A DNA stretch of 64,000 nucleotides, taken from assembly GCA_004297205.1 (NCBI GenBank), contig SCUL01000001.1, positions 93,862 to 157,861 of the forward strand, in the 5' to 3' direction. The stretch comes from Patescibacteria group bacterium. Its GTDB lineage: Bacteria > Patescibacteriota > Patescibacteriia > 2-12-FULL-57-11. This document shows, one piece after another, positions 11,689 to 62,099 of the stretch (its first letter is position 1; each line of letters begins with the position of its first letter). Made by a program: the position numbers and the translations under genes. Below the pieces are notes generated by a model. The model had not been told where the DNA came from. It worked only from the letters and a program-made list of their open reading frames with translations, and searched no databases.

Positions 11689-12868
11689 CCGGAGCGATAC
11701 CCGTTTCGTTGATGGTCCGTCCCTTGGGCGTCAACCATTCGGCGATGGTCAGCTTGAGCGCGCCGCCGTCGGACAGCTCTTCGTAATCCTGGACGGATCC
11801 CTTGCCGAAGGTCTGTTCGCCCACGAGCGTGGCGAGCTCCGCGTCCTGGAGCGCGCCTGCCACGATTTCCGAGCCGGAAGCGCTGCCGCCGTTGACGAGC
11901 ACGACCGTGGGGAACTCCGCCAGCCGGGCGCGCACCGCCGCGTCAAACGGCTCGTCGTTGCCGTCGCTGCGCCGTTCGATCACGACCGTGCCGCGGCCGA
12001 TCCACTCGCCGGCCACGTCGACTGCGGCGTCCAGGTAACCGCCGGGGTTGTTGCGCAGGTCGAGGATGACGGCGACCGGCTTCTGGCGCGTGAATTCGCG
12101 GATGGCCTTGTCGAAGAGCGGCACCGTCTCCTCGTTGAACTGGCGCATCTCCACATAGGCGACGTTGCGCCCGTCCGTGGTGCGCTTCATCTCCCAGGTC
12201 ACCGATTTCACGACGATGACGTCGCGCACGACCGACACTTCGAACGGTTCACCGCCGTTGTTCTCGCGGAACAGCAGGAGCTTCACGGTCGTCCCTTTCT
12301 CGCCGCGGATAAGGTCCACGGCCTCGTCCACGGTCATGCCGCTCGTGTCCGAGTCGTCGATGCGCAGGATCATGTCGCCGGCTTTGATGCCGGCGCGCGC
12401 CGCCGGCGTGTCGGAGAGCGGGGCGATCACCACGATACGCTCTTCACGCATGCCGATCTCGGCGCCGATACCGCCGAAGGTGCCCTTGAGGTCGTTGGAG
12501 AATTCCTCGGCCGACTCCGGATCGAAGTACACGGAGTACGGATCGCCGAGCGAGGCCACGATGCCCGCCAGCGCGCCGCGGAACAATTCGCCCTCGCTTA
12601 CCGGCTGGTGCACGTACTTGCGGCGGATGTCGTCCCAAATCTTCCAGAACAGGGTGAAGTCGACGTCGTCCGGCAAGCCGCGTCCCTCAGCCAATGCGCG
12701 GCGGGCCGCGACGGCTTCGGATTCGGCACGGTCGGCGCCGCGCTTCTCGCCGACCAGCACGCCGGCCACGAAACCGCCGGTCCCCAGAAGCAGGACCAGA
12801 TAGATCGTGACCAAGCTACGCAATAGCCGCGTCCCCCGTTTTGAGGGCGGGACTCCGGGTTCGTTCAT
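11582..12868 (-). CDS. C-terminal processing peptidase (S41 family, Ctp/Prc-like) with an N-terminal TM anchor and a PDZ domain
   Basis: LDLRNNPGGYLDAAV and NGGSASGSEIVAG are S41 motifs. The track start at 12874 appears to be TTG, and the first ATG is 2 codons in. Confidence 0.85.
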   Translation of the reverse strand: MNEPGVPPSKRGTRLLRSLVTIYLVLLLGTGGFVAGVLVGEKRGADRAESEAVAARRALAEGRGLPDDVDFTLFWKIWDDIRRKYVHQPVSEGELFRGALAGIVASLGDPYSVYFDPESAEEFSNDLKGTFGGIGAEIGMREERIVVIAPLSDTPAARAGIKAGDMILRIDDSDTSGMTVDEAVDLIRGEKGTTVKLLLFRENNGGEPFEVSVVRDVIVVKSVTWEMKRTTDGRNVAYVEMRQFNEETVPLFDKAIREFTRQKPVAVILDLRNNPGGYLDAAVDVAGEWIGRGTVVIERRSDGNDEPFDAAVRARLAEFPTVVLVNGGSASGSEIVAGALQDAELATLVGEQTFGKGSVQDYEELSDGGALKLTIAEWLTPKGRTINETGIAPDEKVEYTKEDIDADRDPQLEKALELIAAGTARSGR

Positions 12869-12978
12869 ACGCAAAAAACGGCAACCGACGAAAAAGAGAT
12901 CGCCCGCAGTGTATCAAAACGGGATCCGCTGGCAAGCCGGGATTCGGGTGAATAACGTTATCCACACCCACCTCTTGC

Positions 12979-12993
12979 GTTCGGTTTCTGTTC
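12979..12993. promoter_or_regulatory. candidate LexA/SOS box, direct-repeat type GTTC-N7-GTTC
   Basis: gcGTTCggtttctGTTCgg lies ~45 nt upstream of the lexA ATG. Confidence 0.4.
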
Positions 12994-13005
12994 GGAAGAT
13001 ACTAC

Positions 13006-13020
13006 GAACAAGAACCGAAC
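13006..13020. promoter_or_regulatory. second candidate LexA box GAAC-N7-GAAC (same motif, opposite orientation)
   Basis: ctacGAACaagaaccGAACata lies 15 nt upstream of the lexA ATG. Confidence 0.4.
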
Positions 13021-13034
13021 ATACCCCCACGCCC

Positions 13035-13643
13035 ATGCTCACCAAAAAACAGAAGGCCATCCTCGACTACATCATCTCCTTCACCCAGGAGAACGACGGG
13101 CCGCCCAGCTACCGGGACATCGCCGACGCGGTGGGGCTCTCCTCCCCTGCCACGGTCCACGAACACGTCGACAACCTCCGTTCCAAGGGCTACCTCGTGA
13201 ACGAAGGCGACGGACGCGCCGCCACGGTCAACCCGACCTTCCTGCGCTTCGGCCGGGCGCTCGAACTGCCGCTGGCCGGCCTCATCACCGCCGGCTCCCC
13301 GATCGAAGCCGTGCAGGACACCAATGAGACCTTCGCCGTGCCGGCCAAGCTCGTGGTCGACGGCGCCAACTCCTACGTCCTCAAAGTCAAAGGACGCTCC
13401 ATGATCGAAGACGGGATCCTCGACGGCGACTACGTGGTCGTGGAGCGCAACCCCTCGCCCAAGAACGGCGACGTGGTGGTGGCCCTGCTCGACAACGCCT
13501 ACGCCACGCTCAAACGCTTCTACCGCGAACCGACCCGCATCCGCCTGCAGCCCGCCAACCGCGAGATGGAACCGATTTATGTGAAAGACGTGATCGTCCA
13601 AGGAGTCGTCCGCGCTGTCATCCGCCAGTTCGCAACGTCATAA
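13035..13643 (+). CDS. lexA: LexA repressor (SOS regulator)
   Basis: MLTKKQKAILDYI...PPSYRDIADAVGLSSPATVHEHV (winged HTH) and ...AGSPIEA...VKGRSMIEDGILDGDYVVV (S24 peptidase with Ser/Lys dyad). The start was moved to the internal Met, because the track N-terminal extension is K/R-rich junk. Confidence 0.85.
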   Translation: MLTKKQKAILDYIISFTQENDGPPSYRDIADAVGLSSPATVHEHVDNLRSKGYLVNEGDGRAATVNPTFLRFGRALELPLAGLITAGSPIEAVQDTNETFAVPAKLVVDGANSYVLKVKGRSMIEDGILDGDYVVVERNPSPKNGDVVVALLDNAYATLKRFYREPTRIRLQPANREMEPIYVKDVIVQGVVRAVIRQFATS

Positions 13644-35085: not shown

Positions 35086-37744
35086 TCACGGCGCGCCGCC
35101 GGAGGGAAACGCCGAATGTTCATCAATCAACTCGCCGGGGGACGGCAGTCCAAGTTCTTCGTCGATGGTGGTCTCCGAGGGAACCGGCTCGACCGTGGCC
35201 ACGTCGGCGACGTTCTGCCCGATGACGTAGTCGCCGAAGAAGATCGTGTTCACGAGCCACACGCTCGTCTGCGCCCAGGTGGGACCGAACAAGGCCTGCA
35301 GCACTCCCTCGGAAATCACGCGGCGCAACGTCCGTTGCTGGGCCACGAGATGATACTCGAGCGTGGTGCGGACCTGGACGGCGCGGCCGGGACGGATCGT
35401 GACGTTTTGGCCCACCGGAAACCGCGCCAGATGGTAATTCGGCCACGTGCGGATCTGCGGGGCGTCGCCGAACCAGGAAACGAGCACGGACGGTTCCGGA
35501 AAGGTATGCCGCTTGAAGTCGGTGCCGATGTAGGCGACCTGTCCGGATTGGCCGCGGACCAGGTCGCCCGGATGCGGGTGGTAGACCTTTTCGACGGAAC
35601 AAATCTCGGGATAGGCGTCGAGGTCGAAGGACCATTCCTCTCCGACGGCTCCGCTGACGTCCGTCCACAGGGGGAGGTCGTCGACAGCGAGGTCTCCCGC
35701 AAACACCACAGCGCGCAGCGCGTAGGCGGCGGTCGAGGTGGCGGACGGGATGTGGGCGTACGCCTTGCTCTCGAAATGTTCGATGTGGACGATGACATCC
35801 TCGAACTGCCCGTCGCCGTCGGCGTCGAACGCGTACGACGTCTCCGACGCGGATACCGACTCCACCCGGACCGCCGCCGAACCCGGCTTCAACGCGCGGC
35901 CGTCGGGAAACACCAGATACGGCAGGACCGCGGCATGGGCGAAGTCGGCGATGCAGGCCTCGTCCAGTTCGGGCGCGACGATGCGGCCTTCGCGCAGTTC
36001 GTGCTCGTGCGGTGGTGCAGCGCAGTTGTTCGTGAGGTCGACGCGGATGGACTCCGATTGCACGGGCGAAACGTCGTACGACGGACTGCGGAATTGAAAG
36101 TACGTGCTGTAGTTGCCGTCTTCCGCCGGGAACTCCACGTCGGTGTCCGCCATGACGCCGTCGAAGTTCAGCCAGGGCAGGTTCTCCAGATCGCTCGTCG
36201 GGCCGACGCGATACCACGCGGCGCTGTGGGCATGAATATGCAGTGTCGCCGTCGCGTCCGGACTGCAGCCGCCCTCGAGGTAGTAGGCTTCGATCTCCGT
36301 CGGCGCGGAGCCTTCCGGTTCGGTGACGCGCGGTTGCGGCGGAGGTTCCGGAGCCGGCGGCGAACTGACCATGACGGCGTCCACATCGTCGTCGATGCCG
36401 ACGGCGCCATCCGGTGCGGCCGCGTTGTCCGAGACGGTGACGGTCCAGTCGCCGGCCGTCTCATCGGCGTACCAGAACGCCGCGCTCGAAGCACCGGGGC
36501 CGATGGTCCGCGAGGTGATGGCGGAACCGCCGGATGCGGCGTCATAGAAATGCGGACCGGAACCCGATGAATCGGTGTACAGGGAGACGGTGTCAGACCC
36601 CGTGGTCACCGGGTCGCCGTCCTGGTCGACGCGGGAGACGGCGTACGCGAGGCGCGTCCCGGCGGTCATGTCGCCGGGGTCGGTGAGCTGGAACGCGACG
36701 ACGTCATTGAGGTCGCTGGAAAGGATGGCAACTTTGGCGTTATCGTAATTTGCTACGGCAAGATCGACATCATTGTCCCCGTCAAGATCAGCGGGAAAAG
36801 CGGACCACGGACCGCTGCCCGCCGAATACTGCACGGCTGCGGCGAAGGTGCCGTTGCCGTTGTTGAGGAGGACGGAGACGTTGTCACTGTCATAATTCGC
36901 CGTGACAAGATCGCGGTCGCCGTCGCCGTCGAGATCGGCGGTGAAGACCGAGGGAGGATGGGTTCCCACGGCGTAGTTCACGGGCGAAGCGAACGTGCCG
37001 TCGCCGTTGTTGAGGAGGACGGAGACGTTCGTTATGGTTGTCGTAATTCGCGGTGGCGATATCGACGTCGCCGTCGCCGTCGAGATCGGCGGCGTCGAGC
37101 GCGATGGGATATGCGGTGATTCCGTAATGCACCGCCGCGGCGAAGGTGCCGTCGCCGTTGTTGAGGAGGACGGAGACCGACGCACCGAAATAATCCGCGA
37201 CGACCAAATCCTGGTCGTTGTCCCCGTCAACATCGACGGTCTGGACGGACGCCGGTACGTCCAGCACTCCGTACGCCACCGCCGCGGCGAAGGTGCCGTC
37301 GCCGCTGTTCAGAAGAACGGAAACGCTGTCGCTCATGAAATTCGTGGCGGCCAAATCGAGATCGAAATCGCCGTCGAGATCGGCGGCGAAGACCGAACTG
37401 GGCCTGCTCCCCACGGCGTAATTCACGCTGGCGGCGAAGGCGCCGTCGGCGTTGTTGAGGAGAACCGAAACGGTATTGCTGTTATAGTTCGCGACCGCCA
37501 GATCACGATCGCCGTCGCCGTCGAGATCGGCGGCGAAGACCGAGCGAGGATTGTTGCCTACATCGTATGAAATGGGAGACCCGAAAGCCGCGTAGCTTGC
37601 TTGGGGAGCAAGCAGCACGGAAATGGTGAACAGAGCCGTACTGGATACAAACCCAACGAGCATGCCGACGGCGACGCGTCCGACGCGCGAAACATCCTTC
37701 TTGGCACGGAAACGACGCGTCCGTTTGGCATGTGGTCGGGACAT
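35086..37744 (-). pseudogene. FG-GAP/VCBS repeat surface protein (~886 aa) broken by a +1 frameshift near 37033. Either a pseudogene or a sequencing error.
   Basis: Track ORFs 36890..37822 and 35086..37233 are two frames of one repeat protein (DLDGDGDRDLAVANYNSNTVSVLLNN...). At ~37030 the sequence reads aaccataacgAacgtctcc. Deleting one A restores ...ANYDNHNDVSVLLNNGDGTF. Confidence 0.6.
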
Positions 37745-56538: not shown

Positions 56539-56659
56539 AGTTGGTCGTGGACCATTATGCCATCCGGACGGGAAAATGGCCACTCGCCGCATGTCGCCGC
56601 CGCAGGAGCTGCGGGAGCTGAGCGGTCAGGGGCGGTAGGAATCGGTTTGCTGCCGCAAA

Positions 56660-56692
56660 CGAAAACACCAGCCACATCGGCTGGTGTTTTCG
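56660..56692. terminator. bidirectional terminator hairpin AACACCAGCC-acat-GGCTGGTGTT with T-runs on both strands
   Basis: Perfect 10-bp stem at the left edge of the low-GC island. Confidence 0.5.
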
Positions 56693-56832
56693 TGACAGGC
56701 CAACTCGCCTGAAAACTGACACTTTCAGGGGGGTTCAAGCTACTTTCGGGGTTTGACCGCTGGATACTCGGTCGGAAGAGAAAAGTGGAAAAAGTGGGAC
56801 TCCGGGTGAGGGGCGTGTCTCACTTTTAGAGG

Positions 56833-57345
56833 TTACAGGAGCCGCGCGGTCGAAAGCTTGATGGAGAGTGCCTGGGCACTGACAAGGTATTTCTTCGCCA
56901 GCGAAGGAATGTCCGGCGTGGCCGCGAGATCCTTCTTTAGCATCTTCGCGGGCATCAGCAATTCGCCAGCAAAGAGGTTCGCCTCCTTTTCGGCGTGCGA
57001 GGCCGGACCGTCTTCGCTACAGCTACCGTGCCTCATGAGCATGTGTCCGATTTCATGCGCCAGTGTAAAGCGGCGGCGACACCCTGGGTGGTTCTCGTTG
57101 AACACAATCGTGACGAATTCATCGTCCGCCTTTTTACACACGACCAGAAGTCCAGAGACCTTTTCGGTGAACTTCTGGCTGCCGACCACGTCTAGGTTTG
57201 TTTTGGACTGAAGATGCTCAATGACTTGGCGCAGGGACACGGGTGCGGTCGAGATGCGCGCATGCTTCAGAAGATTTTGAGCTGTGACTTCAGCAAACTT
57301 CTTCCGAGGCCCGAGATCGACCCCGCCCTCATCCATTCTTTGCAT
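56833..57345 (-). CDS. ImmA/IrrE-family metallopeptidase (anti-repressor protease)
   Basis: HEIGH motif in RFTLAHEIGHMLMRHG. Start at the internal Met overlaps the XRE gene's 3' end, as in immR-immA pairs. Confidence 0.75.
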   Translation of the reverse strand: MQRMDEGGVDLGPRKKFAEVTAQNLLKHARISTAPVSLRQVIEHLQSKTNLDVVGSQKFTEKVSGLLVVCKKADDEFVTIVFNENHPGCRRRFTLAHEIGHMLMRHGSCSEDGPASHAEKEANLFAGELLMPAKMLKKDLAATPDIPSLAKKYLVSAQALSIKLSTARLL

Positions 57346-57679
57346 TCCCTTTTCGCTTAGCCATTTCAATAATCCGCTCGATCGCTTCCCGATCTTGTTT
57401 GGAAATATTCTTCTCCGCCCTAAGCGCAACTATGACGTCCATCTTTGTGTCTTTGCCCAGCAAAGAATCCACGTCGATCTTAAGGATGCTTGCGATGCGA
57501 CCCAGATTCTCCGCCGTCACCCCGCGCTGGTCGTTTTCTATGAGGGAGATGGCGGTAGCGGTTTCGAAATCCAGCGCCTTCGCAAGGTCAAGCTGTGAAT
57601 AACCTGCGGCCTCCCGTGCAGCCCGTATGCGCTGACCAATTGTTTTCGCCTTATTCTCATCGGTTTTCATACGTTTCAT
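57329..57679 (-). CDS. XRE-family helix-turn-helix transcriptional regulator (ImmR/Cro-C1-like)
   Basis: IGQRIRAAREAAGYSQLDLAKALDFETATAISLIENDQRGVTAENLGRIASIL is an HTH_XRE domain. Confidence 0.8.
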   Translation of the reverse strand: MKRMKTDENKAKTIGQRIRAAREAAGYSQLDLAKALDFETATAISLIENDQRGVTAENLGRIASILKIDVDSLLGKDTKMDVIVALRAEKNISKQDREAIERIIEMAKRKGNAKNG

Positions 57680-57707
57680 GTTGGCATGATAGCATCATCG
57701 TTTCGAT

Positions 57708-57755
57708 TTGACAAGGGTATTTCGTATTGATATACTTCTATTGTCATAATGACAA
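57708..57755 (+). promoter_or_regulatory. consensus-like promoter TTGACA-17nt-TATACT followed by a perfect palindrome TTGTCAT-a-ATGACAA (candidate repressor operator). A divergent promoter for the XRE gene overlaps it on the other strand.
   Basis: gatTTGACAagggtatttcgtattgaTATACTtctaTTGTCATAATGACAAtatcc lies 25 nt upstream of the operon's first ATG. In reverse it reads TTGTCA-17-TATCAT before the XRE ATG. Confidence 0.55.
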
Positions 57756-57778
57756 TATCCCCCGTAGGGGTCACCCAC

Positions 57779-58051
57779 ATGAACACCTACCTCGTGTCGT
57801 ACGACCTTCGGAAGCCGGGAAAGGATTACGCCCCGCTGCACGCGTTCCTCAAAAAGTATTCGGCATACGCGAAGCCCCTTGAGTCGCTGTGGTTCGTGAA
57901 GAGCCCGCTGACCGCCGAGGGCGTCCGCAACGAGATCATGACCCAAATCGACTCCAACGACCGCCTCTTCGTCGTGAACGTCACCAAGGCGGGTGCGGCT
58001 TGGACCGGCGTGGACAACGCAAATTCTAACTGGATTAAGGCTAACATGTAA
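57779..58051 (+). CDS. hypothetical small protein with a Cas2/VapD-like beta-alpha-beta-alpha-beta sequence pattern (putative ferredoxin-fold nuclease-like)
   Basis: MNTYLVSYDLRKPGKDYAPLHAFLKKYSAYAKPLESLWFVKSPLTAEGVRNEIMTQIDSNDRLFVVNV. Compare the Cas2 pattern LVxYDI..kRraKv.k.L..yG.RvQnSVFec.l......l...i..ii...DsvriY.l. There is no cas1 or CRISPR array in the window. Confidence 0.45.
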   Translation: MNTYLVSYDLRKPGKDYAPLHAFLKKYSAYAKPLESLWFVKSPLTAEGVRNEIMTQIDSNDRLFVVNVTKAGAAWTGVDNANSNWIKANM

Positions 58052-58056
58052 CCCCT

Positions 58057-58278
58057 ATGGCAAACCAGCACATAGTGCAGCGCGAGGAAGGTTGGGCGGT
58101 CCGGCGCGAGAAGGCCGGACGCGATACCGCCGTCCTCGACACCCAAGCGGAGGCAATCAAAGAGGCGAAGCGCATCGCGGACAACCAGGGCGGCGAGGTG
58201 CTCATCCACGGGCGTGACGGCAAGATCCGCAACAAGGATACGCACAGCAAGGTCGACCATCACCCACCTAAAGGCTAA
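58057..58278 (+). CDS. DUF2188-family small protein
   Basis: HIVQREEGWAVRREKAGRDTAVLDTQAEAIKEAKRIADNQGGEVLIHGRDGKIRNKD matches the DUF2188 pattern. Confidence 0.6.
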   Translation: MANQHIVQREEGWAVRREKAGRDTAVLDTQAEAIKEAKRIADNQGGEVLIHGRDGKIRNKDTHSKVDHHPPKG

Positions 58279-58283
58279 CCCCC

Positions 58284-58502
58284 ATGAACATCGGCGAAGT
58301 TAAGAACAAGGCAGAGTGCCCCGCCTGCAAGGCTGCGGTCGAGTTCACCCTGGTGGAGATCGCTGCGGAATCGTCCGTGACATGTGGCGGCTGCGGGGCA
58401 TCAATCAAGCTCACCGACAAGGACGGCGGCGCAAAGAAGCTCATCAAGGAGATGAACGATATCACCTCCCAATTCCCCAAGAAGATCACCCTCAAGTTCT
58501 AA
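58284..58502 (+). CDS. small zinc-ribbon protein (CPAC...CGGC)
   Basis: 72 aa with four Cys in two CxxC pairs. The 5-nt spacing from the previous gene suggests it is in an operon. Confidence 0.5.
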   Translation: MNIGEVKNKAECPACKAAVEFTLVEIAAESSVTCGGCGASIKLTDKDGGAKKLIKEMNDITSQFPKKITLKF

Positions 58503-58526
58503 TCCATCACCGACCCAAACGACCGT

Positions 58527-58835
58527 ATGATTTACGACTTCAAGGGTCCGTACACCTTCTCTGAAAAGGTCATATCGGACTGGGACAGCGACTCGATCGG
58601 CGTCTACTACTGCGGATACAAAAATGCGGATGGAAAGCTCGCTATCTGCTACATCGGCAGGGCAGTCGCCGAAGGCGGTATGCGCGGACGCCTCCTCGAG
58701 CACCTCGGTGAGGACAAGTGGTCCGATGTTACTCACTTTGGCTTCCATCGTTGCGACACCGCCACGGAGGCCAAGAACCACGAGATTGCCGAAATCGTTC
58801 TCTACAAACCCAAATACAACACGGTCGGCAAGTGA
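58527..58835 (+). CDS. stand-alone GIY-YIG nuclease domain protein
   Basis: GVYYCGYKNADGKLAICYIGRA...RLLEH...NHEIAEI carries the GIY-YIG motif, the Arg and the Glu. It has no additional DNA-binding domain. Confidence 0.65.
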   Translation: MIYDFKGPYTFSEKVISDWDSDSIGVYYCGYKNADGKLAICYIGRAVAEGGMRGRLLEHLGEDKWSDVTHFGFHRCDTATEAKNHEIAEIVLYKPKYNTVGK

Positions 58836-58937
58836 GTGTGGTGCCGCACCTCGCCGAGAAGTACACGAGGTAGCTCGCGGAATAAAAAACGTAACGCCCT
58901 CGAACATGCTGAGGGCGCGGTAGTGATCCATAATCGT

Positions 58938-59014
58938 GCTTTGCTTATCGGGCTAAAAACTTATCTACTTGTTCGATAAGCCGAGCCCATGTAACTAGGT
59001 GTGACCTTTGTTTA
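58938..59014. promoter_or_regulatory. AT-rich region upstream of the methyltransferase gene with an inverted repeat GCTTATCG...CGATAAGC and a palindrome TTTGTT-tat-AACAAA. Candidate promoter/operator.
   Basis: Seen directly in the sequence. It is preceded by a terminator-like hairpin CGCCCTC-gaacatgct-GAGGGCG at ~58895. Confidence 0.35.
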
Positions 59015-59030
59015 TAACAAATAGATAGTT

Positions 59031-59810
59031 ATGGGAAATTCCTATACAATTCCAATGTTAATCGCTATGCCAGAAGCAGTAGCTACAAAACGACGGATCC
59101 AGGGAGGGGTCGCTACGACCAACCTAGTCTTGTCAGCCCATGTAACGGGAAATGCCGATGTCTTCCCGACAGTTATTGATTTGCATGTGGCTCCGGGATC
59201 AAAGGTGGCTGACGTCACTTACGGAAAGGGTGTTTTTTGGAAAAAGGTTCCGCCGGGAAAGTACCAACTTTTCCCGAGCGATCTGAAAACCGGAATTGAT
59301 TGCACAAAATTACCCTACGAAAACGAGAGTCTTGATTGCGTCGTTCTTGATCCCCCCTACATGGAGGGGCTATTCCGCGGATCAAAGAATCAGCTGGCCG
59401 GATCTGGTACCCACGCAGCCTTCCGCGAAAACTATTCCAACGGTCAAGCATCCTCAATTGATGGGCCGAAATGGCACGACGCTGTTCTCGACCTGTACTT
59501 CCGTGCTGGCATCGAGGCCAGGAGGGTTCTAAGAAATGGCGGTACGCTCATCGTCAAATGCCAAGATGAAGTGAGCGCAAACAGGCAGAGACTTACTCAC
59601 GTTGAGATCATCAACGAGTACGTTGGGTATGGATACTACGCGAAAGATATTTTCGTAGTCGTACGGACGAACAGGCCGGTCATGAGCCGACTAAAGAAGC
59701 AGGTTCACGCTCGAAAAAACCATTCTTACTTCCTCGTGTTCGTGAAGGTCCCTGTCAACAAAAATCCGCGTCTTTATCGACCGCGAAGCAATTCGTCGAG
59801 CAACGGATAG
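59031..59810 (+). CDS. DNA methyltransferase (N6-adenine or N4-cytosine class, DPPY motif). Probable modification subunit of a type II R-M system.
   Basis: [10 protein letters not shown] (motif IV) followed by LAGSGT (motif I-like), which is a beta-class order. The gene is low-GC. Confidence 0.75.
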
Positions 59811-60352
59811 GGATCGGTGGTAAAGGGAGGCTCAGGAGGCCAAGAGACGTTGACTGTAGTGGCCAGCAGGTGTTGCTGCTGCTCGGGGGTATACTTTTTG
59901 GATTTAGATCTCGGAAGGTCTTTGTTTTTTGCAAAAATGAACCTCCAACCCTCCCCGAACGAGAAGAGATTCACCGCCAAGATATCGAACTCGCCCACAA
60001 GCAGGCACGTGGTTTCGACAACTGACCCGTCAAACAGCTTGACTGGCCGCCGGTCGCTTGCGTCAACTTGGGCTTTTCCGCACATCACCTTGTCAACACA
60101 ACGGATACTATTCGTTTGAAGCGACTTCACTTCGATGAAGAACTCTCTGCCACCGTAAGTAACGGAAATATCGCCTTTCTTAGTGCGGTCGTGATCATCA
60201 TACTTTTTTACATTTGTCACTTCCTTACGGCCATCGAACCACGTCTTCTTGGCCTTGGTCTCGCCGAGATAACCAAGAAGCATCCCGCGCAGGCTGGGAT
60301 TCGTGTCTATTACTTCGGTGAGATCATCCGCTGTGATCTCCCATCTCTGCAA
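59774..60352 (-). CDS. putative restriction endonuclease (PD-(D/E)xK-like motif), convergent with and overlapping the methyltransferase gene
   Basis: [17 protein letters not shown] gives D...E-x-K. The call rests on position and motif only, with no recognisable family. Confidence 0.4.
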
Positions 60353-60569
60353 GATGTCCTTCTTGGGGTCACTCAGATCGAGAGAGTATTACCACAAATT
60401 GACAGATGAGTCCAGTATAGCGCCCAACCATCTTCGGCGACTAGCCACACAGTAATTGAAAAAGCACCAACCGAAGATGGCGGCTTTCAGCAACTGGCTT
60501 GGGACTCCGATCTTTGGAACCGGCGCGCAACTTCCGCTGGGAAGCCGGATTTTGACGCAAGTCATCTCT

Positions 60570-60616
60570 TGGCAGGGGCGGTAGGAATCGAACCCACGCA
60601 AGGGGTTTTGGAGACC
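60570..60616 (-). repeat. partial tRNA-Trp gene copy (3' 47 nt: acceptor, T-arm and part of the anticodon stem). An att-like direct repeat of the intact tRNA-Trp 1.4 kb away.
   Basis: tggcaggggcggtaggaatcgaacccacgcaaggggttttggagacc is identical to 62026..62072 and lies at the right edge of the low-GC island. Confidence 0.7.
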
Positions 60617-60627
60617 TTGCGCGAGTG

Positions 60628-60664
60628 ATAAAAAAGTAGGCTCTCAGCATTTCTGCTGAGAGCC
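60628..60664 (-). terminator. intrinsic terminator hairpin GGCTCTCAGCA-tttc-TGCTGAGAGCC plus a T-run, minus-strand orientation, downstream of rtcB
   Basis: 11-bp perfect stem, with TACTTTTTT on the minus strand. Confidence 0.55.
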
Positions 60665-60689
60665 CGGTGCTGTCGCGTCGTCGAGGCGA

Positions 60690-61877
60690 TCACCCCTTGA
60701 CGCAGAGCACCTGCTTGAGCTCGGCCACGATCTCGACCAGGTCCGCCTGGTTGGCCATCACCCGCTCGATGTCCTTGTAGGCCGCGGGGATCTCGTCGAG
60801 GACCCCTTCGTCCTTGCGGCACTCCACGCCGGCGGTCTGCGCGGCGAGGTCCGCCGTCGTGTAGGCCTTCTTGGCCTTGTTGCGGCTCATCCGCCGACCG
60901 GCGCCATGCGAGGCGCTCTGGTAGGACTCGGCGTTGCCGCGGCCGCGCACGATGTAGCTCTTCGCGCCCATCGACCCGGGGATGATCCCGAGATCGCCGG
61001 CACCCGCGCGGATCGCGCCCTTGCGGGTGATGAAGAGCTGCTCGCCGAAGTGCGTCTCCTCGGCCACGTAGTTGTGGTGGCAGAGTACCGGTGCCTCGCA
61101 GGTCATGTGCGGAAAGGACCCGCGCAGCACCGCGAGGCAGCGCTCCAGCATCACGGTCCGGTTGATCCGCGCGTACTCCTGCGCCCAGTAGAGGTCGCGT
61201 CGGTACGCGGCCATCTGGGGCGTTCCGGCGAGGAACACCGCGAGGTCGCGGTCCGGAAGCTCGGCGTTGTGGGCCAGCTTCTTGGCCGCGGCGATGTGGA
61301 AGTCGGCGAGCTCCTTGCCGATGTAGCGGCTGCCCGAGTGCAGCATCACCCACACCCGGCCCTCCGTGTCGAGACACAGCTCGACGAAGTGATTACCGCC
61401 GCCGAGCGTTCCGAGCTGCTTCGCAGCGCGGCTGGCCAGCTGCCCGACCTTCGGCGACAGCTCGGCGAACCGCGCCATGAGCTCGGCGCCGGCGCGAGCC
61501 GTCTCTGCCGCGCATGCCGCGAACACCGGCTCCTCGTAGGTGGCGAAGCCCACGGGGATCGCCGCCTCGATCGCGAGCCGAATCTCGCGCAGCGACTCCG
61601 GCAGGTCGCCCGCGGTGAGGTTGGTCCTCACCGCGCCCATGCCGCAGCCGATGTCGACACCGACCGCGGCCGGCGACACGGCGTCGCGCATGGCCACGAC
61701 GGAACCGACCGTCGCGCCCTTGCCGAAGTGGACGTCCGGCATGATGGCGACGTGGTGCACGCACCACGGCAACCGGGCGATGTTCTTCAGCTGCTCGAGC
61801 GCCTCGGCCTCGACGTCGGCGACGTCGGTCCAGAGCTTCACGGGTACCCGACCACCGACGATCTCACTGCGTGCCAT
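60690..61877 (-). CDS. rtcB: RNA-splicing ligase RtcB
   Basis: GGGNHF, HGAGR and MPDVHFGKGATVGS are RtcB motifs. 395 aa. High GC, host-like. Confidence 0.9.
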   Translation of the reverse strand: MARSEIVGGRVPVKLWTDVADVEAEALEQLKNIARLPWCVHHVAIMPDVHFGKGATVGSVVAMRDAVSPAAVGVDIGCGMGAVRTNLTAGDLPESLREIRLAIEAAIPVGFATYEEPVFAACAAETARAGAELMARFAELSPKVGQLASRAAKQLGTLGGGNHFVELCLDTEGRVWVMLHSGSRYIGKELADFHIAAAKKLAHNAELPDRDLAVFLAGTPQMAAYRRDLYWAQEYARINRTVMLERCLAVLRGSFPHMTCEAPVLCHHNYVAEETHFGEQLFITRKGAIRAGAGDLGIIPGSMGAKSYIVRGRGNAESYQSASHGAGRRMSRNKAKKAYTTADLAAQTAGVECRKDEGVLDEIPAAYKDIERVMANQADLVEIVAELKQVLCVKG

Positions 61878-62025
61878 AGCTGTTTTCTCCCTGTGGTGTT
61901 TGTTATGGAAAGAGAAGCGAATTGTTCAGGAACGACGCGACAGTAAATCACATTTTCTCTGGAAAGTCAAGCCTGTGCGCATGTACAAGAAAAGCGCGGC
62001 CGTCAGTACGACGGTCGCGCTTTTC

Positions 62026-62099
62026 TGGCAGGGGCGGTAGGAATCGAACCCACGCAAGGGGTTTTGGAGACCCCTGTACTACCATTATACGACGCCCCC
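62026..62099 (-). tRNA. tRNA-Trp (anticodon CCA), with the 3' CCA encoded
   Basis: The reverse complement GGGGGCGTCGTATAATGGTAGTACAGGGGTCTCCAAAACCCCTTGCGTGGGTTCGATTCCTACCGCCCCTGCCA folds as a cloverleaf. The anticodon loop is CTCCAAA and the T-loop is GGTTCGATTCC. Confidence 0.85.

Follow-up and report, generated by a model that had tools for sequence, protein, structure and literature searches.

A probable repressor-protease damage switch in front of interchangeable small phage-type genes on a tRNA-Trp island of a Patescibacteria genome

Do four small genes that stand almost end to end behind one regulator form a dedicated system, or are they a chance selection from a larger stock of genes? 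The question is raised by a locus in a 64,000-nucleotide stretch of a Patescibacteria group bacterium genome (assembly GCA_004297205.1, contig SCUL01000001.1, positions 93,862 to 157,861 of the forward strand), the whole of which we call the window. Here the genes g1 to g4 encode a Cas2/VapD-like protein, a DUF2188 protein, a zinc-ribbon protein and a minimal GIY-YIG protein, and they face a gene pair for an XRE-family repressor and an ImmA-type M78 metallopeptidase (Table 1). An earlier note on the sequence had suggested that the four genes could be one dedicated module. We now consider it probable that the locus is a damage switch of the ImmR/ImmA type, that the genes it drives are interchangeable early genes from temperate phages of Patescibacteria, and that both are carried on an integrase-less prophage remnant at a tRNA-Trp gene.

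The neighbourhoods of homologous genes carry this conclusion. Using iterative searches and family hidden Markov models (HMMs), we fetched 86 loci with a g1 homologue (83 non-redundant) and 73 with a g4 homologue (57 non-redundant), the latter comprising 68 metagenomic loci and five from look-ups. On these loci we reject a fixed four-gene system: g2 adjoins g1 in two of the 83 non-redundant g1 loci (L001 and L008), g3 and g4 in none, and no g1, g2 or g3 homologue was found in any of the 57 g4 loci. A total absence of co-occurrence is ruled out, since look-ups of g3 relatives revealed the subsets g1-g2-g3, g4-g2-g3 and g4-g3, all of them sitting directly behind a divergent XRE and ImmA pair or a LexA-like S24 repressor. 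Because only subsets recur, and because they do so behind shared regulators, we read g1 to g4 as a shuffling pool and find the dedicated system unsupported. The earlier note had tied its proposal to a Cas2-like fold of g1 and to joint occurrence of the four genes in other genomes; the fold is indeed Cas2-like, and the four genes were not found together elsewhere.

The closest relative, L166, illustrates the exchange of genes. Its ImmA and XRE are 71% and 81% identical to those of the window and face homologues of g1 (70%), g2 (89%) and g3 (47%) separated by 4-nt gaps, after which an unrelated 204-amino-acid (aa) gene and a ParB-methylase gene follow. An XRE/ImmA pair faces g4 (53%), g2 (56%) and g3 (45%) in L169, an S24 LexA-like repressor faces g4 (48%) and g3 (36%) in L167 and L168, and a LexA-like N-terminus faces g3 in L163 to L165. 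Downstream, L167 and L168 continue with a 106-aa gene, a ParB-methylase, a second methylase and the terminase genes TerS and TerL, and in L001 the g1-g2 pair likewise gives way to a ParB-methylase (phrog_498, E=1.9e-76), TerS and TerL (phrog_38, E=6.4e-81). The same regulator, g1 and downstream open reading frames (ORFs) of the same sizes recur in L005, L007 and L012, where N-terminal sequence that appears by eye to be shared suggests that the downstream genes are also those of a phage. The position behind the regulator in close relatives leads either to ParB-methylase and terminase genes or to genes of cyclic-oligonucleotide-based antiphage signalling systems (CBASS). The latter arrangement is seen in two Patescibacteria loci (L006:6001-9041 and L011:6001-7680), where an operon controlled by XRE/ImmA opens with g1 and goes on to SAVED-effector and SMODS (CD-NTase) genes. 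Elsewhere g1 is followed by a metallo-beta-lactamase-fold gene (L081) or by large ORFs (L008).

What these loci have in common is the regulator and its position. A divergent regulator lies directly upstream of g4 in 44 of the 57 loci, in the form of XRE plus ImmA (19), XRE only (4, on truncated contigs), a LexA-like repressor (16) or an HTH-Panacea protein (5). For g1 the corresponding numbers among 83 loci are 11 with XRE plus ImmA, two with a LexA-like repressor and two with HTH-Panacea; most of the closest relatives, which come mainly from Patescibacteria, are among the 11. The XRE proteins of about 250 aa beside g1 and g4 were at one point candidates for CI-like XRE-S24 repressors; this was ruled out by their Pfam architecture, HTH_3 plus SocA/Panacea. 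Such proteins lie divergently upstream of g1 homologues in L013:5074-5859 and L014:5004-5783, and upstream of g4 homologues in L093:1471-2247, L109:3974-4696, L116:216-938, L118:2645-3409 and L146:4071-4850. The Panacea domain is known from antitoxins (PMC8832971), and the pairing raises the possibility that the g1 and g4 proteins may be toxic. Together with the cleavable repressors found beside g1 and g4, it lends some indirect support to the suggestion of the earlier note that the genes could be a toxin, abortive-infection or anti-defence module. These seven loci resemble PanA antitoxin loci in placing HTH_3 and SocA_Panacea directly upstream; they differ in that the regulator is divergent from g1 or g4 and not co-transcribed with it, and no such protein is encoded in the window.

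The control region of the window lies between the XRE gene and g1. Genes g1 to g4 are all on the forward strand, at intervals of 5, 5 and 24 nt as the earlier note had given them, and are preceded by a near-consensus sigma-70 promoter, which the note had called a consensus one. In a promoter scan this g1 promoter reads TTGACA-17-TATACT with a TG extension (57708-57736; -35 box at 57708-57713, -10 box at 57731-57736) and matches consensus at 11 of 12 positions, while a promoter for the XRE gene faces it at 57714-57686. Just past the -10 box lies the palindrome O3, TATTGTCAT-A-ATGACAATA (57739-57757; core TCATAATGA), whose 9-nt arms are 100% complementary, and two further operator-like sites, O1 (TCGTTTCGA, 57698-57706) and O2 (TCGTATTGA, 57722-57730), precede it. 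The region can be aligned across 18 loci, the window and 17 others (alignment A5), in all of which TTGACA is invariant and three TCA-N3-TGA-type sites stand in register: one upstream abutting the -35 box, one between the -35 and -10 boxes and one just after the -10 box. Because these sites keep their register across the 18 loci, the palindrome of the window occupies a conserved operator-like position. We infer that O1 to O3 are operators bound by XRE, a prediction from the sequence, and conservation in the 17 other loci makes the control by the adjacent XRE/ImmA pair that the earlier note had suspected probable.

Both regulators belong to familiar families. XRE matches Pfam HTH_3 (E=1.2e-11) and the PADLOC capH profile (E=1.2e-13, profile positions 2-102 of 103); ImmA matches Pfam Peptidase_M78 (E=2.1e-16) and PADLOC capP (E=2.1e-22), the latter over profile positions 6-151 of 242 only. 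Their genes are co-directional, overlapping and divergent from g1 to g4. Comparison with homologues indicates that ImmA probably starts at the ATG at 57336, which gives an 8-nt overlap with the XRE stop; the longest ORF reaches to 57429. The window XRE is 40-59% identical to the XRE proteins of g1 and g4 loci and ImmA 30-54% identical to the peptidases adjoining g1 and g4 homologues, and the HEIGH...E motif is conserved among the 33 aligned peptidases. A Cys lying nine residues past the second His of HExxH, around HEIGHMLMRHGSCSED, is conserved in the closest clade and absent in a distant one; on a shorter loop, it is reminiscent of the 'cysteine switch' loop of CapP, an analogy only.

Three known switches invite comparison. 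The ImmR/ImmA pair of Bacillus ICEBs1 and phi105-type prophages likewise consists of a small XRE repressor and an M78 protein of about 170 aa, encoded co-directionally on an integrated element and divergently from the operon under their control; in Enterococcus phage phiFL1A such a pair adjoins a homologue of g1. Unlike those elements, the window locus has no integrase or excisionase, its first gene encodes a Cas2-fold protein and not an excisionase or Cro-like helix-turn-helix protein, and cleavage is predicted. In the CapH/CapP system, DNA-damage-activated CapP cleaves CapH (Lau et al. 2022, bioRxiv 10.1101/2022.04.27.489752), and the mechanism by which CapP responds to single-stranded DNA (ssDNA) has been described (PMC13228613; see also Calloji et al. 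2026). The layout is again divergent, relatives of the window pair in L006 and L011 control CBASS genes, and DUF2188 occurs in the regulated operon, as in Figure 6F of Lau et al. The association of XRE/ImmA with DUF2188 is not new, because CapH/CapP-like pairs heading DUF2188 operons were reported by Lau et al. 2022, citing Burroughs & Aravind 2020. In contrast to CapP, the window peptidase lacks the C-terminal domain region, and the window encodes no CD-NTase. DdrO/IrrE (PprI) of Deinococcus also couples an XRE repressor to an ssDNA-sensing M78 peptidase that cleaves it (PMC10904395); there, an IrrE with a GAF domain governs a chromosomal global regulon, whereas the window holds a local island switch in a host that has LexA.

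These comparisons suggest how the locus may work. XRE bound to the three TCA-N3-TGA-type sites, which overlap the face-to-face promoters, would keep g1 to g4 off. DNA damage, perceived as ssDNA, would activate the M78 peptidase, which would cut XRE by analogy with ImmR/ImmA, CapH/CapP and DdrO/IrrE, and g1 to g4 would then be transcribed as one unit. Repressor binding, damage-triggered cleavage, co-transcription and effector activity are all conjectural for the window, in that we infer them. The four products would form no obligate complex; in related elements, one gene of the pool would replace another at the leading positions after repressors that are cut on damage, and g1 and g4 would provide nucleic-acid-cutting or nucleic-acid-binding effectors that need a tight off-state and serve the element in conflict with its host or with competing DNA. 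The main argument that g1 and g4 are probably tightly gated effectors acting on nucleic acids is that homologues of both stand behind cleavable repressors or behind proteins with the antitoxin-type Panacea domain; g2 and g3 would be their small partners.

We are confident that g1 has a Cas2/VapD-like fold, as the earlier note had proposed and the fold check agrees. Invariant residues in the family are S7-Y8-D9-L10, P13-G14, L34, S36, W38, D58, N60-D61 and W75, and strand 2 carries a conserved E-S-[VL]-W. The putative catalytic residue, D9, ends strand 1 inside S-Y-D-L, at the place of the conserved Asp of Cas2, and is the same in all 20 sequences aligned. Like BPSL1038 (PMC10491678), g1 stands alone without CRISPR, but it shows no evident D(X20)SST motif such as BPSL1038 has. 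Sequence similarity to Cas2 itself is low: g1 scores 15.4 bits against Pfam Cas2 PF09827 (cut-off 23.8, E=0.022), its match to PADLOC Cas2b reaches E=5.4e-4, the g1 profile finds Cas2 among PDB sequences at a non-significant E=0.76, and a Foldseek search against viral structures gave nothing informative. The earlier note had also held that cas1 and a CRISPR array are missing. A repeat scan found no CRISPR-like array in the window, and no cas1 adjoins g1, whose neighbours are XRE and DUF2188, the remaining window not having been scanned for cas1; across the 86 g1 loci, Cas1 is not among the commonest neighbour families.

The g1 family is widely distributed, with relatives in 190 species-representative genomes of many phyla, on six viral contigs and in 57 cultured temperate-phage records (Staphylococcus, Enterococcus, Klebsiella, Mannheimia and others), where they lie in immunity regions. 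Examples are gp05 of Enterococcus phiFL1A (NC_013646), whose neighbours are XRE, ImmA and a serine integrase, gp35 of Staphylococcus SN8 (NC_055020), beside a repressor, a metalloprotease and TIR/DUF4231 genes, and a homologue in the StB20-like record NC_028821. Several of these phage homologues are labelled 'CRISPR-associated endonuclease Cas2'. This looks like over-annotation, and the label is misleading because the g1 family is not CRISPR-associated.

The identification of g4 as a GIY-YIG protein stands, for the catalytic core of 100 aa only. A profile of 56 sequences, in which G25, Y27, Y42, G44, R55, H59, E86 and N98 are invariant, matches the N-terminal GIY-YIG domain of UvrC (1yd6, E=3.1e-5), to whose YVGKA...R...E...PKYN motif it aligns, and the top six matches are all UvrC. 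The single g4 sequence gives no Pfam match above cut-off, weak DUF123 and GIY-YIG Pfam matches occur in 11 and 3 of 16 family members, and an hhalign comparison of g4 with one GIY-YIG protein returned no match. The AlphaFold2 model is poor (mean local confidence, pLDDT, 57.6; template-modelling score, pTM, 0.49), which precluded a fold search. With UvrC and Cho, g4 shares the pattern Y...YxG...R...E...PKYN and a link to LexA-type control, under which Cho is expressed in E. coli. It differs in lacking UvrB-binding or C-terminal domains, in an extra 24 aa at the N-terminus, in a longer spacer between GIY and YIG and in being often phage- or island-borne, with no homologue found in viral contigs.

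Homologues of g4 outside the window have a feature of their own. In the XRE/ImmA-type g4 loci about 50 nt between the -10 box and g4 are conserved (alignment A6; for example L098:4900-4960, L136:1000-1060 and L113:2210-2270). For this leader we propose, by eye, a structure with stem P1 (GCAAAGU/ACUUUGC), a stem P2 of 4-5 bp and the loop AUGUAAAGGUCGA. Pairing is seen in 82% of cells, against 32-48% when the partners are slid, and was matched in none of 500 shuffles; both partners vary in 8 of the 12 pairs. LexA-type and HTH-Panacea-type loci, and g1 in L013 and L014, have a simpler hairpin that shares the (A/G)GUCGA loop. The leader had no Rfam match at gathering thresholds, RNAalifold predicted no structure for it, and no convincing copy was found in the window. 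It is possible that the leader is a new cis-regulatory RNA.

The two middle genes are smaller and differ in how readily they can be placed. The assignment of g2 to DUF2188, already made in the earlier note, is secure (Pfam E=7e-21, 74.6 bits, cut-off 22), and g2 also matches phrog_3220 (E=5.4e-23) and, over its full length, the PADLOC candidate defence gene PDC-S16 (E=6.2e-27). The g3 protein carries CxxC...CxxC, and its zinc-ribbon matches in Pfam and NCBIfam are all sub-threshold. A HMMER search of 1.84 billion representatives yielded 72 relatives of g3 at E<=1e-3, mostly of 65-85 aa, while a word-indexed search recovered g3 alone. In its closest relatives the gene adjoins g1, g2 or g4 homologues and follows an XRE/ImmA pair or a LexA-like repressor; more distant ones are found in other mobile or defence-type contexts.

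The surroundings of the locus are those of a small integrated island. Three exact 18-nt copies of the tRNA-Trp 3' end (repeat family D3) start at 56627, 60573 and 62029, and the longer 47-nt repeat (D1) at the inner boundary is 100% identical to 62026-62072; the three copies suggest two tandem insertions at one tRNA. GC content falls from about 0.63-0.71 outside to 0.48-0.59 within approximately 56650-60570, a 3.9-kb island that holds only ImmA, XRE, g1 to g4, a methyltransferase and a 192-aa ORF. The inner segment (60617-62025), with a host-like GC content of 0.64-0.69, encodes only the RNA ligase RtcB (Pfam E=5.4e-125). The methyltransferase (Pfam N6_N4_Mtase E=9.3e-9; phrog_24333 E=1.2e-68) starts 195 nt past g4 on the same strand and is possibly expressed together with g1 to g4. 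Its 3' end and that of the convergent 192-aa ORF overlap by 37 nt. The ORF has no match in Pfam, PHROGs, PADLOC, NCBIfam or PDB sequences, and a restriction-modification system made up of the two genes is unsupported, the ORF having no detectable relative; they could be such a pair or an orphan methylase and an unrelated gene. Elsewhere in the window, a 278-aa forward-strand ORF with LexA_DNA_bind and Peptidase_S24 domains at 12807-13643 encodes a host LexA, a canonical SOS repressor, and because LexA is encoded there the island XRE/ImmA is an extra, element-borne switch. A high-GC tandem repeat of 147 nt (36832-37551, 4.9 copies, 69% matches) probably belongs to a repeat-domain protein unrelated to the operon.

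Table 1. Features of the tRNA-Trp island and its boundaries, in window coordinates
Feature	Position	Strand	Description
Outer island boundary	56627-56644		18-nt exact copy of tRNA-Trp 3' end
ImmA-type M78 zinc metallopeptidase	56833-57336	-	~167 aa, HEIGH motif
XRE-family HTH repressor	57329-57679	-	116 aa, ImmR/CapH-like
Divergent control region	57680-57778		between XRE and g1
g1	57779-58051	+	90 aa, stand-alone Cas2/VapD-like ferredoxin fold, phrog_1090
g2	58057-58278	+	73 aa, DUF2188
g3	58284-58502	+	72 aa, zinc ribbon (CPAC...CGGC)
g4	58527-58835	+	102 aa, minimal GIY-YIG domain of UvrC N-terminal type
N4/N6 DNA methyltransferase	59031-59810	+	259 aa, phage-type
192-aa ORF	59774-60352	-	convergent, overlaps methyltransferase 3' end
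Inner island boundary	60570-60616		47-nt exact copy of tRNA-Trp 3' part
tRNA-Trp gene	62026-62099	-	

Several points weigh against an ImmR/ImmA-type switch driving early phage genes. Scans for ORFs, Pfam and PHROGs found no integrase, terminase or structural gene within 56645-60569, and with none left the phage origin of the island rests on its relatives and not on the window. The ImmA-sized window peptidase lacks the C-terminal, GAF-type sensor domain of CapP and IrrE, so that its activation by ssDNA is an extrapolation. The transcript is left undefined, there being no clear Shine-Dalgarno sequences before g1 to g4, nor any convincing intrinsic terminator in the stretch that separates g4 from the methyltransferase. 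Among the loci seen, all four genes stand together in this window alone, and the comparison covered eight g3-family contexts and took in g2 neighbourhoods only unsystematically. Furthermore, 66 of the 83 g1 loci have none of these upstream regulators and show varied, often defence-island-like neighbourhoods; in other phyla these include type I S subunits, PIN_8/PIN_12, KAP NTPase, GmrSD, KwaB, AbiEii-type AAA_21 and Fic. Finally, at many loci g4 seems to be a monocistronic chromosomal gene beside a bona fide LexA, which a host SOS gene would fit as well.

Four other explanations can be set beside this one. The defence-type neighbours of g1 (restriction-modification, PIN, KAP, GmrSD, Kiwa and AbiEii) are what would be expected if the locus were a dedicated anti-phage, abortive-infection system under CapH/CapP, in which the four proteins jointly act as sensor and effector triggered by damage or phage. 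The capH and capP profile matches, the PDC-S16 candidacy of g2, the two nuclease-like folds of g1 and g4, the CBASS operons headed by g1 in L006 and L011 and the CapH/CapP-like pairs that Lau et al. (2022) reported at the head of immune operons, DUF2188 operons among them, point the same way. Yet the genes form no co-occurring set, L166 has an unrelated gene in place of g4, related cassettes run straight into terminase genes, no PADLOC system model fits and none of the four families has a known defence phenotype; we regard such a system as unlikely. Distinctly unlikely, too, is that the operon encodes toxin-type effectors, with g1 (Cas2/VapD/GhoS-like) and g4 as growth-arresting nucleases, g2 and g3 as accessories and the divergent regulator as safety catch, perhaps acting as a direct antitoxin in the HTH-Panacea loci, whose pairing with g1 and g4 suggests that both may be toxic. 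Type II toxin-antitoxin modules are bicistronic and this arrangement is divergent, Pfam and NCBIfam reveal no known antitoxin domain in the operon and the window has no Panacea protein. The main text of PMC8832971, on Panacea, mentions neither GIY-YIG nor Cas2, and BPSL1038 was reported to have limited cytotoxicity and no toxicity to nematodes (PMC10491678).

The UvrC-like profile of g4 and the 16 non-redundant g4 loci that face a LexA-like repressor would also suit host SOS-type repair, with g4 as a Cho/UvrC-like incision nuclease in an operon under an IrrE/DdrO-like regulator, as IrrE/DdrO controls repair genes in Deinococcus. We judge this very unlikely for the window, where the module lies on a low-GC island between tRNA repeats, the host has its own, separate LexA and g4 is without any UvrC/Cho region past the 100-aa catalytic core; moreover, the LexA-like proteins beside g4 can be prophage repressors with terminase genes after them, as in L167. 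That the four genes are leftover ORFs, decaying cargo with accidentally tight spacing and no joint regulation, might be argued from an island without mobility genes, the small number of g3 relatives and the lack of clear ribosome-binding sites. This is highly improbable given four intact ORFs with conserved homologues and invariant motifs, the recurrence of the g1-g2-g3 order with 4-nt gaps in L166 and the conservation of promoter and operators. We therefore continue to favour an ImmR/ImmA-type switch with interchangeable early genes behind it.

Beyond this, we can offer a more speculative view of the cargo. Conceivably, though on balance doubtfully, g1 and g4 represent an unrecognised, interchangeable class of nucleases that are licensed by damage, use g2 and g3 as adaptors and, for instance, destroy host or competing DNA or RNA or disarm defences. 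The class would operate under ImmR/ImmA, LexA-like or HTH-Panacea control in temperate phages and in islands, both in Patescibacteria and in further phyla, during the first minutes of induction. In a variant of this idea the Cas2-fold g1, standing in the position of Cro, could be a functional third part of the ImmR/ImmA switch.

The regulatory logic of the locus, in which a damage-sensing protease cuts a repressor, is already known, and it is the driven cargo that is unfamiliar: two uncharacterised nuclease-fold families found repeatedly behind damage-cleavable or antitoxin-type regulators. The comparison also urges caution in reading tight operons of small genes beside regulators as fixed 'systems'. 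For the temperate phages of Patescibacteria (the candidate phyla radiation, CPR), which are hard to study, our analysis suggests that early regions are built from swappable small genes.

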